Below, piece after piece: positions 49,855 to 56,402 of a stretch of DNA of 64,000 bases. Origin of the DNA: Actinomycetota bacterium (GTDB lineage Bacteria > Actinomycetota > Acidimicrobiia > IMCC26256 > PALSA-610); NCBI GenBank assembly GCA_052390615.1, contig JBQTGT010000060.1, positions 16,368 to 80,367 of the forward strand, read 5' to 3'. The notes under the pieces are model-generated. The model did not search any database, was not told the DNA's origin, and saw nothing but the letters and a program-made list of their open reading frames with translations. The position numbers and the translations under genes are program-made. Position 1 is the stretch's first letter, and every line of letters starts with the position of its first letter.

Positions 49855-50649
49855 TCACGCGCCTTCTGACGGCGTCGCCTGGGTGCCCGGCGCGGGTTGC
49901 TCGGCGGGCGCCGACTCGCTCGCCGGTGCGGGCAGCCCCAACTGAGTGCGCAGTTGCGACAAGCGCGCTTGCGCCTCCGCATTGATCTGGGCTTGTTCGA
50001 CTTCGAGCATGCGGCCTTCGACCGACGAGCCCTGGAGATCGGACATGCCTTCGGCGCGCGCGACGCGTGCCTCGATCTTCTCGCGGATCTCCTCGAACGT
50101 CGGCACGTCCTCGCCGATGGTCGCGGTGAGCTGGGTCATCGCCGCGTTCATCTGCTCTTGCATCTTCGCTTGGTCGAGCTGCGACAACAGTCGCTGGCGC
50201 TCGGACAGCTTCTTTTGCAGCGCCGTCGAGTTCTTCTGCACCGCGCCCTTGGCCGCGTCGGCGTTCTGGGCGGCGTCGAGCAGCATCGCCCTCAAGCCTT
50301 CGACTTCGCGCTCGAGCGCGATCAGTCGGTTCGCGAACGATTCTGCCGCCGACTGGTACTCGAGCGCCTTGGCCGCGTCGCCCTTCTGCGTCGACTCGTC
50401 CGTCAGCACGAGCGCTTGGCGGGCGTTCGCCGTCACACGGTCGAGCTCTTCTTGCGCCCTGTCGAGGCGCATCTGCGTCTGCTTTTGGTGCGCGATGACG
50501 TTCGCGGCTTGCTCGGTGAGACGCCGATGCTGCTCTTGCGCCTCGTGGATCGCTTGTTCGAGCTGGACCTTCGGGTCCGCGTGCTCCTCGAAGCTCCCCG
50601 ACATGCGGGCAGTCATGTACTTCCACCAGCGGCGCAGCAGCTTGAACAT
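49855..50649 (-). CDS. pspA: PspA/IM30 family protein (actinobacterial Rv2744c type)
   Basis: WKY....F.EHADPKVQLEQAI, LLSQLDQAKMQEQ, P.F.E.R.KIE; coiled coil; ATG 50649. Confidence 0.93.
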   Translation of the reverse strand: MFKLLRRWWKYMTARMSGSFEEHADPKVQLEQAIHEAQEQHRRLTEQAANVIAHQKQTQMRLDRAQEELDRVTANARQALVLTDESTQKGDAAKALEYQSAAESFANRLIALEREVEGLRAMLLDAAQNADAAKGAVQKNSTALQKKLSERQRLLSQLDQAKMQEQMNAAMTQLTATIGEDVPTFEEIREKIEARVARAEGMSDLQGSSVEGRMLEVEQAQINAEAQARLSQLRTQLGLPAPASESAPAEQPAPGTQATPSEGA

Positions 50650-50668
50650 GGCGGGCAGCCTAGGACGG

Positions 50669-51427
50669 TCAGGAACGGCCGACCCGACCGACTTCCTCCA
50701 AGCCCTGGCGCAGCGCCTCCATGTCGCCGACGAGCTGGTCGACGTCGGCGCCGAGGCCCGAGAGGGCGGCGACGTCACCGGCCGACAGCGACAGCTCCAC
50801 CGCGCGCGCGACTGCCTCGTCGAGGCGGGCGTCGAGCACCTCGAGCCGCTGGCGGGCATCGGTGGCGACCGTCACGAGCCGCTGCCCGGAGGCGAGCTGC
50901 GCCTCGAGCGCCTGCACAGTGCGGTCCCACGACTCCCGCGCGCCGGGCGACTCGGGCCGCGTGTCGCTGATATGCCCCAACCGCTGCTCGACGGCGTCGA
51001 GCTCGAGCGAGCGCACACCTTCGTCGAGGGCGTCGGCGTGCGATGCGACGCGCCAGCACTCCTGCACCGCCGCGTCGATGCGGCCGCCGATCTCGCTCAG
51101 ACGGTCGCGCACCGGCCCGGCGCGAGCCGATTCGACCACCTCGCCGAAGCGGCGGCGCGCGCGCAACGCCTCGTGCACGTACCGCCGCCACGGTTCGGAC
51201 AGCGCCTTCGGATCGATGTCGCGCAGCGGGCGCGGCCCGCGGGGTAGACGAATGGCGACGGCGGCGCCGTACGCGAGCGCGCCGACGGCCACGATCGCGG
51301 CGAGCGGCGCGCCGAGCAGGATCGCGATGGACGCGCCGGCGCCGCCGGTGAGGATCGCGGCGGGTGCGGTGATCGCGGCCGCGGTTCGCCGGGACTTCAG
51401 GTGCTCCGGCAGCCGCTCGATCGCCAC
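50669..51427 (-). CDS. Two-TM plus helical membrane protein, PspM-like anchor
   Basis: Hydrophobic hairpin near the N-terminus then a helical bundle ending ALRQGLEEVG; immediately upstream of pspA; GGAGG RBS. Confidence 0.65.
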   Translation of the reverse strand: MAIERLPEHLKSRRTAAAITAPAAILTGGAGASIAILLGAPLAAIVAVGALAYGAAVAIRLPRGPRPLRDIDPKALSEPWRRYVHEALRARRRFGEVVESARAGPVRDRLSEIGGRIDAAVQECWRVASHADALDEGVRSLELDAVEQRLGHISDTRPESPGARESWDRTVQALEAQLASGQRLVTVATDARQRLEVLDARLDEAVARAVELSLSAGDVAALSGLGADVDQLVGDMEALRQGLEEVGRVGRS

Positions 51428-51513
51428 GAGAATAACCTCCCGCTCTGTGGGGCCGCTCGGGCCCCGGCTCGGGCGCCGCAGGATACCTGCGTCGCCGCTC
51501 CCCGCCTCCGCGC

Positions 51514-53322: not shown

Positions 53323-54410
53323 CGCACCACCTCTTCCCAGAGTCCGCGCAGCGCGTCGAGCGCCCCCGGCGCCGGCAGCCCGTCGGTGGCGGGCAACGGC
53401 GGGTCGCCGGCGTCGTCGGCGCGATAGCCCGCGTCGAGCAAGGCGTCGCGCAACGGATCGTTCAGCGCGCCGGCATCGCCGGCGCCGCCGACCGGTGCGA
53501 GCACGACGTCGGCGGTGGCCACAGGGGCAGGGTAGAGGAGGACTGCCGCGTCCCGGACGTCGGCCGCGGCCCGTGCGAGCGCGCGGAGCGCGGCCGCCTC
53601 CGTGGCCGTGACGATGTCGTAGCGCGCGCCGACCGGCCGGGTCTGGAGCCAGCGTGCGAACGGATCCGTGTCGGGGTCGAACGCATCGTCGGGAACCGAG
53701 CGCTCGAGCCGTTGGAACCAGCCGGGGAACTCGTCGCTCGTCTCCCAGTCGAGCCGGGACACGTCGTCGGCGGGTATCTCGGGCGTGGCGAGGTACCCGC
53801 CGACCGCGTGGCCCAGCACCAGCAATCCCGTGGCGGACAACTGCGGTTCGGGATGGGCGGGCCGCACCGCGCCCCAGGTGCCCTCGCCGCCGATGTCGCT
53901 CCACGGAGTGCCCGCGACGTCGCCGATGCAGCGCCACGTCAGCATGCCATCGCACGCGGCGAGCAGGACGTCGGCCCGGTCGCGACGGGCCGCGACGGCG
54001 AGCCGGGTACGCGCGAGCGCGCTGGTGTCGGCGCCCAGCAGCTCGTCGACGCCGGCGCGCGCGCGGGCGTCTCGCACGATCTCCGGCCACGGCGCGAACG
54101 TGACCCACGCGTCGATTTCCGCATCGGCGCCGTCGGCGAGCGCGGTCAGCCGGGCGGCGGTCGTGCCCGCGGCCTCCACCGTGACGTTGGCGTCGAGCGT
54201 CCCGCACACCTCGGCGAGCTCGACGATGCACGCGATTCGCAGTCGATCATCGGAGTCGCGATCGGAATCGTCGGCGCCATCGGCGCTGCTCCCCTCGTCT
54301 TTGATGATGAGCTCGCGGATCGCGAGCGCGCCGCCGACCATCGCGAGGGCCACAACAAGCGCGAGCAACCGGGCGGGGAACCGCCGCCGGCCGGGCTCGG
54401 AGAGGATCAC
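53319..54410 (-). CDS. Membrane-anchored solute-binding-like protein (divergent relative of the neighbouring SBP domain)
   Basis: N-terminal TM; DAWV..PWP, WSDIGG..TWG, HPEP..SATG, LYP.P...AD. Confidence 0.7.
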
Positions 54411-55831
54411 GCGCCGCTCTCGCTCTCGATTGCGGTCAGCGCCGTGCCGGGTGCGGGAATGTCGTCGGGCAAGAGCGTGCTCAAGTCTTCCTTCGTGGTG
54501 CCGGTCTTGTCCACGATGCGGGTCGCGTGCAGCTCGATCGCCGCCTCGAACAGGTTGCGCGTGAGCCGCGCGTTCCCGAACATCGACCCCCGCTCCTGCG
54601 CGTCGCAGTACGCGCGGACCTTCGCGAGCGCTTCAGTCGACGGGCGGTACTCGTTCTGTTCGCCCAACGACGTGAAGATCTCCACCAGCTCGTCGCTCGT
54701 GTAGTCGGGGAACACGATCGTCTTCGGGAACCGCGAACGCAGCCCCGGATTCGCGTCGAGCAGCTGCTCCATCGGCACTGGATACCCGGCCACCACCACG
54801 ACGAACTTGTCGCGCTCGTCCTCCATGAGCTTCAGCAGCGTCGCGATCGCCTCTCGGCCGAAGTCCTCGGCGCTATCGACCCAGAGCGCGTACGCCTCGT
54901 CGATGAACAGCAGGCCGCCGAGCGCACCCTTCACCACTTCCTGGACCTTGGTCGCGGTCTGACCCACATACCCCGAGACCATGCCACCCCGGTCGGTCTC
55001 GACGAGATGGCCCTTGGGAAGAACGCCGAGCACCCCGTAGACACGCGCGAGCAGGCGCGCGACCGTCGTCTTGCCGGTACCCGGGTTCCCCACGAACACG
55101 AGATGCCGGCTGCGCTCCGGGACCGGAAGGTTGTGTTCGACGCGCAGCTTCTCGACGCGTGTGAGGTTCACGAGCAATCTGACTTCGCGCTTGACGTCTT
55201 GGAGTCCGATGAGCGCCTCCAACTCGTCGAGCAGGCCGTCGAGGGTCGGTGACGCGGCCGGCGCCTCGCCCGGCAGCCCGCCGAGGGTGTGCGGGTCGTG
55301 CGACTCTCGCGCGTCAGGCAGGGGACCGGGCCGGACGATGTTCCGCGACCGGAGCGCGGCGAGCAGGATCGAGCGGTATTCGTCGAGCGCGGCGAGGGAG
55401 TCACGCGTGGGAATGTCGGCGAGCGCGCACATCGCGTGGCCCACGCCGAGTGCCGCCTCGTAGTAGACCCACGCGTTCGACGTCCATTGCTCGCGGTCGC
55501 CGTCGAGCAAATGGAGGAACAACGGCGACGGCGTCCGGATGAAGCTTGCGTCCCTCGTTACGGCCGTGCTGTGACGAAGATCGCGGAGCGGGCCGTTCGC
55601 CACCTCGGGATCTGACGGACCGAATGACCGGCGGAACGCGAGCAACTGGCGATCGCCCAGCCGGCCGTCTGCGCACACGAATCCGGCCGCAAGCTGACGC
55701 GCTTCCATGAGGAGGCCGCGCCGGACGCCGTCGGGGTCCGCGCCCTTTGCTTCCGGCCACATCATCACGAGCGGCTCCAGCCGCTCGACGAACTCACTCA
55801 CCGCCTGAGCAAGGATCTCGTCGCTACTCAC
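54407..55831 (-). CDS. CbbX/SpoVK-family AAA+ ATPase with TerB-like N-terminal region
   Basis: [52 protein letters not shown]-terminal CADG motif. Confidence 0.9.
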
Positions 55832-55835
55832 TTGC

Positions 55836-56402
55836 TCACGTTTCGTCCGTGCGTTCGATTCCTAGCGCGAGGAGGAGGTCCTCGTGCAGCTGCATCCACA
55901 CCGTGTGGTACGAGTCGAGACGCGGTGACGTGAACCAGTCGTAGTCGCCGTCGTCGACCTTGCCGAGCGCCGCTCGCAACCTTCTCGAGTACGGCCCGAA
56001 GCGCTCGACGTAGCGCGCGACACGTCGGACGACCGGCGCGGCGCGCTCGTCGAGTGCTCGCAAGCGGTCGATCACTTCCCAGTCGTAGCGGGCGTCGCAG
56101 TGATCGTTGGGAACATCCCCGGGTCGGACCTGCCAGTCGTGACACACCCGCATGAACTCGGTGTTGAGAGGGAGGAAGCGTTCGTAGCCGCGCTGCGCCG
56201 CCACTGCGGCGTCGCTTCCGAGCATGACGCGCGCCCACGAGGCGTGTGCCGCGCGTCCGGGTCCGGTGATGCGCACTGCGGCGCGGGCGCGCACGATGAG
56301 GCCGGCGTCGAGGAGCTGCGTGACGATGTCGGAGTCGTCGACCTCGACGAGCCCGCGCAGGCGCACCTCGTGGAGCAGCACGTAGCAGTCGCCCGGCAGC
56401 AC
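55836..56402 (-). CDS. wHTH/MarR-like protein with DSYHTVW..LHEDL C-terminal domain
   Basis: L.DAGLI....RITGPG wing, YERF..LN..F...[23 protein letters not shown]; resembles the family beside mycobacterial ppdK (Rv1126c-like, from memory); GTG start inferred. Confidence 0.75.

Follow-up and report, generated by a model that had tools for sequence, protein, structure and literature searches.

Conserved gene neighbors of pspA in Acidimicrobiia and Nitriliruptoria: an AAA+ ATPase, two solute-binding-type proteins and a protein with two transmembrane helices

A pspA gene cassette and its conservation

We analyzed a stretch of 64,000 nt from an Actinomycetota bacterium (Acidimicrobiia; IMCC26256; PALSA-610), namely positions 16,368-80,367 of the forward strand of contig JBQTGT010000060.1 in assembly GCA_052390615.1, and refer to this whole stretch as the window. 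Six co-directional open reading frames (ORFs) lie on its minus strand at 49855-56402, in a region with a G+C content of about 69%. They encode, from the upstream to the downstream end, a protein of 188 residues (X188), an AAA+ ATPase, a protein related to solute-binding proteins (SBP2), a predicted lipoprotein in which a solute-binding protein (SBP) domain is joined to a von Willebrand factor A (vWA) domain (SBP-vWA), a protein with two transmembrane (TM) helices (TM2), and PspA. PspA and Vipp1 are the bacterial homologs of ESCRT-III. An earlier note on this DNA had proposed that the six genes form an envelope-stress system, and the co-directional genes, the 4-nt gap and the GTGA couplings that it had described are all in place (Table 1). 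TM2, the AAA N-domain and PspA each occur once in the source genome, and pspA is its only gene with a PspA_IM30 domain.

To follow these genes in other genomes, we used the SBP-vWA protein as query against 41 related genomes and compared the surrounding DNA. A phylum sample of 401 genomes was searched with a TM2 profile, an AAA N-domain profile and PspA. A pattern scan, with one genome per species, gave 80 loci, all of them from metagenome-assembled genomes (MAGs); the titles of the scanned records name Acidimicrobiia, Acidimicrobiales, Microthrixaceae, Iamia, Nitriliruptorales and Egibacteraceae, and some are generic or evidently mislabelled. De-duplication left 92 distinct TM2 loci, 58 of which have full flanks (at least 6 kb upstream and at least 3.3 kb downstream), while the downstream flank taken by itself is sufficient for a PspA call in 71. 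The presence of genes in related loci was judged by tblastn and by conservation across loci.

The order AAA-SBP2-SBP-vWA-TM2-PspA is found in 44 of the 58 full-flank loci. Because the same five-gene order recurs in this way, the five genes form one conserved neighborhood, beyond chance, and the AAA+ and SBP genes that the earlier note had associated with pspA are indeed kept near it in relatives. The full cassette occurs in MAGs of Acidimicrobiia and Nitriliruptoria and, among the 41 related genomes, in several families of the source's order. The other full-flank loci have SBP2, SBP-vWA and TM2 only (six loci), AAA, TM2 and PspA without the SBPs (four), TM2 and PspA only (three), or the SBPs, TM2 and PspA without AAA (one). 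In 62 of the 71 loci whose downstream flank suffices, PspA is found downstream of TM2 within 3.3 kb. In the phylum sample, the TM2 profile has matches in 21 of the 401 genomes, 15 of them strong; all 15 genomes with strong matches have PspA, which is found in 157 of the 401 genomes overall (a tally that takes in five genomes flagged as unpublished). TM2 and PspA are the invariant core pair. SBP2 and SBP-vWA nearly always adjoin each other and TM2, and are retained where AAA and PspA are absent. In other words, the SBP pair tracks TM2, and TM2 is the element common to the SBP side and the PspA side.

Five genomes have an SBP-linked TM2 without PspA nearby, and in four of them PspA is encoded elsewhere. 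Two of these four have a shorter TM2 paralog, with the same cytoplasmic motifs, directly upstream of the distant PspA, and the other two have a MurJ-like gene in that place. Such loci raise the alternative of two independent systems in synteny, a surface module of SBP, vWA and TM2 proteins for ligand binding, metal binding or adhesion next to a stand-alone pspA, their order being inherited. We find this quite improbable. It would explain the six full-flank loci with SBP2-SBP-vWA-TM2 and no nearby PspA, the four genomes of the source's family where X188 and SBP-vWA stand by themselves, and the unrelated genes (MurJ or the cyclopropane-fatty-acyl synthase homolog, CMAS) that can separate TM2 from pspA. 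Yet TM2 and pspA remain adjacent in two classes, at TM2 identities as low as about 30-40% and in several different gene orders, and two of the genomes where the SBP-linked TM2 lies away from PspA have the second TM2 paralog beside pspA. The presence of PspA in every genome with a strong TM2 match also argues against two systems.

The AAA+ gene tracks pspA rather than the SBPs, strongly although not absolutely. PspA is also present in all 48 TM2-centered loci that have AAA+, and AAA+ is absent from all six full-flank SBP-TM2 loci without PspA. This last state falls in at least three separate clades of the TM2 tree (FastTree, midpoint-rooted; the clades are given without reference to supports). 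A search with the AAA N-domain profile gives the same picture: it found 16 strong genomes among the 401, of which 15 have PspA, and 15 of the 17 loci in these genomes are beside pspA. In one genome (G282) AAA and PspA are 210 nt apart without TM2 or SBPs, a second locus of another (G334) reads AAA-MurJ-PspA, also without TM2 or SBPs, and four loci read AAA-TM2-MurJ-PspA without SBPs.

Table 1. Coordinates of the cassette genes and associated elements in the window.
Feature	Product length	Position	Strand	Remark
X188	188 aa	55836-56402	-	4-nt gap to AAA+
AAA+ ATPase	474 aa	54407-55831	-	Stop overlaps SBP2 start (GTGA)
SBP2	363 aa	53319-54410	-	GTGA overlap with SBP-vWA
SBP-vWA lipoprotein (predicted)	602 aa	51514-53322	-	86-nt spacer to TM2
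SBP-vWA/TM2 spacer		51428-51513	-	Contains short inverted repeats rich in GC, and a Shine-Dalgarno-like GGGAGG
TM2	252 aa	50669-51427	-	19-nt spacer to pspA
TAGGCT (TANNNT, -10-like element)		50657-50662	-	7 nt 5' of the pspA ATG
pspA	264 aa	49855-50649	-	PspA_IM30

Proteins of the cassette

PspA matches PF04012 (PspA_IM30) with an E-value of 3.9e-32 and 112.1 bits, against a cut-off of 33.9, over profile positions 2-217 of 220. Its C-terminal helix is conserved and is followed by a variable tail.

TM2 was modelled with AlphaFold2 (AF2) at a pLDDT of 89.4, as a short N-terminal tail, TM helices at residues 22-37 and 42-60, and an elongated cytoplasmic helical bundle that carries the invariant motif ARLDEAVARAVEL. 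The predicted loop between the helices has about four residues, so that almost nothing would be exposed outside the cell. The family is large: a search of 1.84 billion proteins gave 1215 cluster representatives at E≤0.001, or 406 with the limit set at E≤1e-30. No Pfam family matches TM2, a member-by-member scan having given scattered weak matches at most. The model has no Foldseek match at E≤0.001, and a comparison of the profile with PDB sequences gave nothing meaningful. VIA-align returned generic coiled-coil and three-helix-bundle matches (best Z 11.2), with Vipp1 (Z 8.9) and PspA (Z 8.4) among many. As these are below the bar for helical proteins, we left TM2 without a fold assignment.

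Some members of the TM2 family carry an N-terminal cytoplasmic fusion, to TerD in two cluster representatives (P0058, P0090), to a SARP-type regulator with Trans_reg_C and BTAD domains (P0137, P0141) or to a Ser/Thr kinase (P0155). They look like membrane-tethered stress, regulator or kinase proteins built on the hairpin-plus-bundle module. These fusions suggest that TM2 is a reusable module for membrane tethering or sensing. A fusion of TM2 with PspA (P0158, a single member) looks frameshifted and was not counted as a Rosetta-stone fusion.

The earlier note had called TM2 a PspM-like anchor. The architecture and the position bear this out, since TM2 has two TM helices and a cytoplasmic domain and is conserved beside pspA (62 of 71 loci), as one would expect for a PspM-like role. 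Common descent with PspM found no such support. The PF25587 (Rv2743c/PspM) model gave nothing at the TM2 gene of the source genome at E≤10, and the alignment of TM2 with nine Rv2743c-family proteins by hhalign has a probability of 1.2% for the whole protein and 1.8% for the cytoplasmic part, the PspM alignment being of low diversity. A language-model feature search with TM2 placed an "Rv2743c family" cluster, of whose members 40% have PF25587, at rank 6 with a score of 0.95. We therefore describe TM2 as analogous to PspM in position and architecture, homology not being supported by the profile comparison.

SBP-vWA combines SBP_bac_11 (E 9.7e-15, residues 42-356) with VWA (E 1.5e-12, residues 407-594), and its profile matches vWA chains in the PDB. 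The lipobox and the complete metal ion-dependent adhesion site (MIDAS) that the earlier note had reported are present and conserved among 34 aligned orthologs. The N-terminus reads LAVGLLVGAC, with the cysteine at C18, and the corresponding column has a cysteine in 28 of the 34; the MIDAS residues D412-x-S414-x-S416 and D526 are kept in all 34, and position 496 is T in 30 and S in four. By these motifs, SBP-vWA is a predicted lipoprotein with a complete MIDAS.

SBP2 has no Pfam match, and a search of PDB sequences with its profile gave nothing meaningful. Aligned with the SBP half of the SBP-vWA profile, it reaches an hhalign probability of 98.7% (E 2.1e-16) over 348 columns. On this profile alignment, the label of "second SBP" given in the earlier note is right, and SBP2 is a true, divergent paralog of the SBP domain. 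Four cysteines (C61, C69, C153, C161) are invariant in 40 SBP2 sequences. In its N-terminal hydrophobic helix A17 is invariant, and A21, A28 and R32 are at least 90% conserved. By inference, this fits a retained membrane helix better than a mere signal peptide, although an AxA-like site could permit cleavage. In two loci (L022 4795-7917 of G004 and L021 6462-9383 of G023) the SBP2 frame continues without a stop into SBP-vWA, giving frames of about 1000 aa. These may be either a true fusion or an artefact of assembly or frame; L021 has a frame break inside SBP2.

The ATPase consists of a helical N-domain (residues ~1-175, window 55307-55831), a variable linker, one AAA module (Pfam AAA, E 5.7e-18) and AAA_lid_6 (E 4.7e-16). 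Its best NCBIfam matches are SpoVK (E 8.8e-83), EccA and CbbX, confined to residues ~197-460 and below the equivalog cut-offs (277.3 versus 422.95 for SpoVK, 234.9 versus 466.65 for EccA and 217.4 versus 459.25 for CbbX). All 38 orthologs keep Walker A K254/T255 (GNPGTGKT), Walker B D311/E312, the pore loop [YF]-V-G at 288-290, and R367. Also invariant in these 38 sequences are G349-Y350, N361-P362-G363, S366-R367, R422 and R425, residues that belong to the GY signature, the NPGLxSRF motif and the sensor-2 arginines. The consulted parts of a 2024 study of the SpoVK-EccA-CbbX clade (PMC11513918) give as defining features, among others, the GY signature, the NPGLxSRF motif and two arginines in the sensor-2 region, and describe the members as narrow-client chaperones whose substrates are recruited by variable N-domains. 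Since the signature residues are invariant and AAA_lid_6 is present, we assign the ATPase to this clade on its motifs.

The earlier note had labelled this protein a TerB-like/CbbX AAA+. The CbbX side agrees with the clade assignment, and the TerB side remained a hint (PF05099) that our comparisons do not raise to homology. The Pfam TerB model matched the N-domain in one of the 38 members, with an E-value of 0.057. The TerB-family chain 2ou3_B came at rank 6 in VIA-align (Z 5.4, rmsd 4.1, 108 aligned residues), and hhalign against two TerB sequences gave a probability of 2.3%, confined to the ADG...E motif. The AF2 model of the N-domain is all-helical (pLDDT 93.5) and has no Foldseek match at E≤0.001; VIA-align gave generic helical matches (best Z 6.6), the profile found nothing meaningful among PDB sequences, and a member-by-member comparison with Pfam gave scattered weak matches at most. 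The AAA N-domain is a new domain that matches no Pfam family.

One may ask at this point whether the cassette is a stress or conflict (anti-phage) system of the Ter/vWA type, its vWA and AAA+ proteins working together as in vWA-MoxR or TerY-type systems. Such systems, according to the consulted parts of PMC7159879, repeatedly combine vWA with an AAA-type ATPase, the two TerD-TM2 fusions point the same way, and the DADGxxxxxE-like motif of the AAA N-domain is reminiscent of TerB. Still, we hold this to be highly improbable. The ATPase is of the SpoVK/EccA/CbbX clade rather than MoxR, the TerB likeness of its N-domain is not significant, and the cassette has no effector, protease, nuclease, kinase/phosphatase pair, or TerD/TelA gene. 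Moreover, the locus is a stable single-copy chromosomal region by housekeeping genes, not a variable island.

The pspA promoter-like element, inserted genes and neighbors

A TANNNT hexamer is found between -16 and -5 of pspA in 50 of 72 orthologs, as compared with none of 74 for SBP-vWA, 11 of 78 for TM2, nine of 57 for AAA+ and 21 of 59 for SBP2. The bases flanking the pspA hexamer differ among orthologs. Most of the pspA loci without it have a Shine-Dalgarno-like core instead, and in several of those inspected a TAG..T hexamer is seen farther upstream. Leaderless genes of actinobacteria usually look like this, with TANNNT about 7 nt ahead of the start codon. The conserved hexamer close to the ATG therefore indicates that pspA very probably has its own transcription start, of the leaderless type. 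The earlier note had itself warned of this element (TAGGCT), which our comparison has now found to be conserved. That pspA has a conserved -10-like element of its own would suit the reading as two independent systems. A consensus scan of 49500-56900 found no sigma-70-like promoter and no minus-strand terminator, with a scan that was not tuned to high-GC actinobacteria. The spacer between SBP-vWA and TM2 is shorter than 50 nt in most orthologous loci, versus 86 nt in the window. The idea of one six-gene operon was rejected as stated, X188 being a non-member and pspA having its own promoter-like element.

In 14 loci that we examined, TM2 and pspA are separated by a gap of 1.4-2.3 kb, occupied by a MurJ gene in 11 and by a CMAS homolog in three. 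The MurJ identification has a PF03023 E-value of 4.4e-85 (one was scanned), and the CMAS match has an E-value of 3.2e-95. Across the loci, MurJ was seen between TM2 and pspA in L054, L062-L066, L102, L106, L124, L125, L133, L141, L142, L144, L145 and L150. In three complete or near-complete genomes (G429, G386 and G342) the MurJ of the gap is the best MurJ match of the genome, which would place the main lipid II flippase gene inside the Psp locus there. The MurJ and CMAS insertions fit an envelope theme, and they also feed the main rival of a PspA-directed ATPase. According to this rival, the AAA+ protein is a SpoVK-like chaperone for an envelope enzyme or membrane protein, e.g., of the lipid II pathway, and pspA merely belongs to the same envelope gene district.

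We consider such a chaperone rather unlikely, for reasons of gene order. In 33 of the 44 full cassettes TM2 and pspA are less than 400 nt apart, with no MurJ or other enzyme gene in between; the adjacency of AAA and PspA outlasts the loss of TM2, the SBPs and MurJ (G282); and in TM2-centered loci AAA+ is lost together with pspA. It does draw on several observations besides the MurJ genes. SpoVK is the best NCBIfam match of the ATPase, albeit below the cut-off, and the consulted parts of PMC11513918 report that SpoVK promotes MurG activity and that EccA1 is linked to mycolic-acid enzymes. In addition, where AAA+ is unlinked from pspA it adjoins DUF4012, GT2 and PAP2 genes (see next section).

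X188 is a conserved neighbor, not a conserved cassette member. The earlier note had counted it in the system as a winged helix-turn-helix (wHTH) gene; the membership did not hold, and our searches did not confirm the wHTH label. X188 has no Pfam match at E≤0.01 and no PDB sequence match at E≤1, and one of ten members matched HVO_A0261_N, with an E-value of 0.01; mean column identity over the ten sequences is 65%. It was undetected in most other cassettes, and elsewhere an alpha/beta-hydrolase gene lies between X188 and AAA+. In the window, a PEP-utilisers mobile-domain gene (56436-56786, plus strand) is divergent from X188, with 33 nt between the starts. This pair is conserved (74-79% identity for the PEP-utiliser and 55-69% for X188) also in genomes without the Psp cassette. 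Four genomes of the source's family have X188 and SBP-vWA (38-42% identity for the latter) beside the same PEP-utiliser gene, without AAA, SBP2, TM2 or PspA there. Because the pair is kept where the cassette is absent, X188 may belong with the PEP-utiliser gene.

As the earlier note had observed, the cassette has no ATP-binding cassette (ABC) importer genes: an ORF and Pfam scan found neither an ABC permease nor an ABC ATPase inside the contiguous cassette of the window, and in the 44 full cassettes the distances between genes are mostly too small for extra genes. The surroundings include genes for a cation-efflux (CDF) transporter (47274-48188, plus strand), a class II fumarase (45876-47264, plus strand) and an FGGY carbohydrate kinase (59257-61236, minus strand). 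This suggests that the flanks are ordinary housekeeping genes, with no sign of a mobile or defense island. On the same strand as pspA and 310 nt downstream of it there is a 432-aa ORF (48246-49544, minus strand) with a lipoprotein-type N-terminus (LCFVTAC), for which neither Pfam nor, in the related loci examined, tblastn gave a match. Upstream of the cassette, a putative ORF of 388 aa (56747-57913, plus strand) has a weak, sub-threshold match (E 4.4e-4, with no stretch that passes by itself) to the bpX6 domain of MoxR-vWA-beta-propeller ternary systems, and this match is probably noise.

A candidate envelope-stress module and its relation to known systems

We judge it fairly probable that the five genes make a functionally linked envelope-stress module, in which TM2 is the hub and PspA the effector, the SBP/vWA pair provides surface input and the AAA+ ATPase is a dedicated remodeller. 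The best explanation of the gene content, as part of this reading, would be a lineage-specific Psp module of Acidimicrobiia and Nitriliruptoria. TM2 would serve as a membrane tether or nucleator of PspA, a role like that ascribed to PspM in mycobacteria, and the SBP-vWA/SBP2 pair would report a ligand, a metal or the state of the wall to TM2 from outside. Contact within the membrane could be made by the N-terminal helix of SBP2 and the TM2 hairpin. The AAA+ protein would most likely be recruited through its N-domain to PspA or to TM2-PspA, and would remodel or recycle the PspA polymer by threading. PspA might also be inducible apart from the upstream genes, via its own promoter-like element. 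The cassette appears functionally coherent, and the idea of a surface SBP-vWA, an anchor, PspA and an AAA+ is best supported at the level of gene linkage. From the system of sensor, anchor, PspA and AAA+ pictured in the earlier note, the linkage of the genes and the co-variation of AAA+ with pspA have thus been retained, and the membership of the wHTH gene has been dropped.

Several points weigh against this module. All the contacts it supposes (SBP-vWA with TM2, TM2 with PspA, AAA with PspA) are inferred from gene linkage. The related genomes are non-independent, so raw counts inflate the support, and the records are mostly MAGs, with certain contigs too short for judgement. The trio of SBP2, SBP-vWA and TM2 has no PspA nearby in six full-flank loci, and the own promoter-like element of pspA, together with the 86-nt spacer, leaves co-transcription with the upstream genes unproven. 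As to the ATPase, four full-flank loci have TM2-PspA without AAA+ (L065, L102, L142, L144), and AAA+ was not found in three of the five genomes that we call type B. In two type-B genomes it is unlinked from pspA and stands directly after a DUF4012 gene (L189 4453-6705 and L190 9610-12129, both minus strand); the DUF4012 proteins have 750-839 aa, and a convergent ABC-F gene lies on the other side. At L180 1546-4494 (contig C135 of G321) AAA+ is flanked by genes for a GT2 glycosyltransferase and, in convergent orientation, a PAP2 phosphatase, by its neighbors another envelope-lipid context. In G421 it is among unrelated genes, and the genome has no PspA at E≤1e-10. Given the unlinked and the AAA-less genomes, the AAA+ protein would be an accessory partner, frequent, dispensable and separable.

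A stronger form of the functional module makes the AAA+ ATPase the bacterial functional counterpart of Vps4: it would extract or recycle subunits of PspA, be recruited at the membrane by TM2, and be gated from outside by SBP-vWA and SBP2. We regard this as possible though doubtful. A complex prediction of PspA with the AAA N-domain and the cytoplasmic part of TM2 (with TM2 as the partner) scored 0.00 and, run without controls, is evidence neither way. What recommends the ATPase as a candidate is that a single enzyme with intact motifs stays beside pspA through many rearrangements.

Comparison with known systems places the cassette as follows. Like the mycobacterial clgR-pspA-pspM(-pspN) locus (Rv2745c-Rv2742c), it encodes a PspA of the actinobacterial type, which shares 43-49% identity with the PspA of loci that carry Rv2743c-family genes, and a neighboring protein of about 250 aa that has a pair of TM helices at its N-terminus and a cytoplasmic domain that is helical. 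It differs in that TM2 is upstream of pspA, whereas PspM is downstream of pspA in Rv2743c-family loci, and in its AAA+ and SBP/vWA partners, none of which the largest survey of Psp systems (PMC11237479) describes, in its main text, for the mycobacterial system. In the consulted parts of that survey PspM is restricted to mycobacteria and corynebacteria. Neither clgR nor pspN was noticed beside the cassette, though neither was searched for. The cassette would extend the Psp architectures of Actinomycetota beyond clgR-pspA-pspM.

With the SpoVK/EccA/CbbX chaperones, the ATPase shares the GY signature, NPGLxSRF, the sensor-2 arginines, AAA_lid_6 and a variable N-domain. Unlike them, it has a helical N-domain of about 175 residues without a significant match, and its conserved neighbor is pspA rather than Rubisco, type VII secretion system or sporulation genes. 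A related precedent in gene content is a context of Ravi et al. 2024 (PMC11237479), in which, as far as the consulted text goes, a bacterial PspA occurs with an AAA+ ATPase and a solute-binding-type protein and which is read there as ATP-dependent membrane remodelling. That ATPase is CDC48-like, with two AAA domains of which the N-terminal one is inactive, and is accompanied by an ABC ATPase, a permease and a PBP-OmpA protein. The present cassette differs in having a single AAA module, with intact motifs and of another clade, in lacking ABC components, and in bringing an SBP-vWA lipoprotein together with TM2. The words "von Willebrand" and "vWA" are absent from the main text of the survey, and the consulted parts of a second survey (PMC9239133) make no mention of vWA, substrate-binding or Acidimicrobiia. 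In the literature searched, consulted in part, we came across neither a pspA accompanied by an SBP-vWA lipoprotein nor one accompanied by an AAA+ of the SpoVK/EccA clade, a context that supplements, a web application or figures may list. We regard the cassette as a Psp system whose set of partners is new and in which TM2, the AAA N-domain and SBP2 match no Pfam family. Besides the ATPase, these partners offer a new family of membrane anchors (TM2) and a possible extracytoplasmic sensor (SBP-vWA/SBP2).

The last comparison is with ESCRT-III and Vps4 of archaea and eukaryotes. As in those systems, the gene of an ESCRT-III-superfamily polymer is coupled to a classical-type AAA+ ATPase with a single module, an aromatic pore loop and a helical N-domain. 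Unlike Vps4, the ATPase is from the SpoVK/EccA/CbbX clade and is without a MIT domain, and its disassembly activity is putative, the likeness being one of genes. According to the consulted parts of a 2025 review (PMC7619361), a Vps4-like ATPase appears to be absent in bacteria. For the open question of how the polymers of PspA and Vipp1 are controlled and turned over without Vps4, the cassette offers a testable candidate ATPase. It may give insight into the sensing of envelope damage, and into the recycling of an ESCRT-III-like repair polymer, in some bacteria. If the ATPase were indeed a counterpart of Vps4, bacteria would have an independently evolved membrane-remodelling machine of the type "ESCRT-III plus AAA+".

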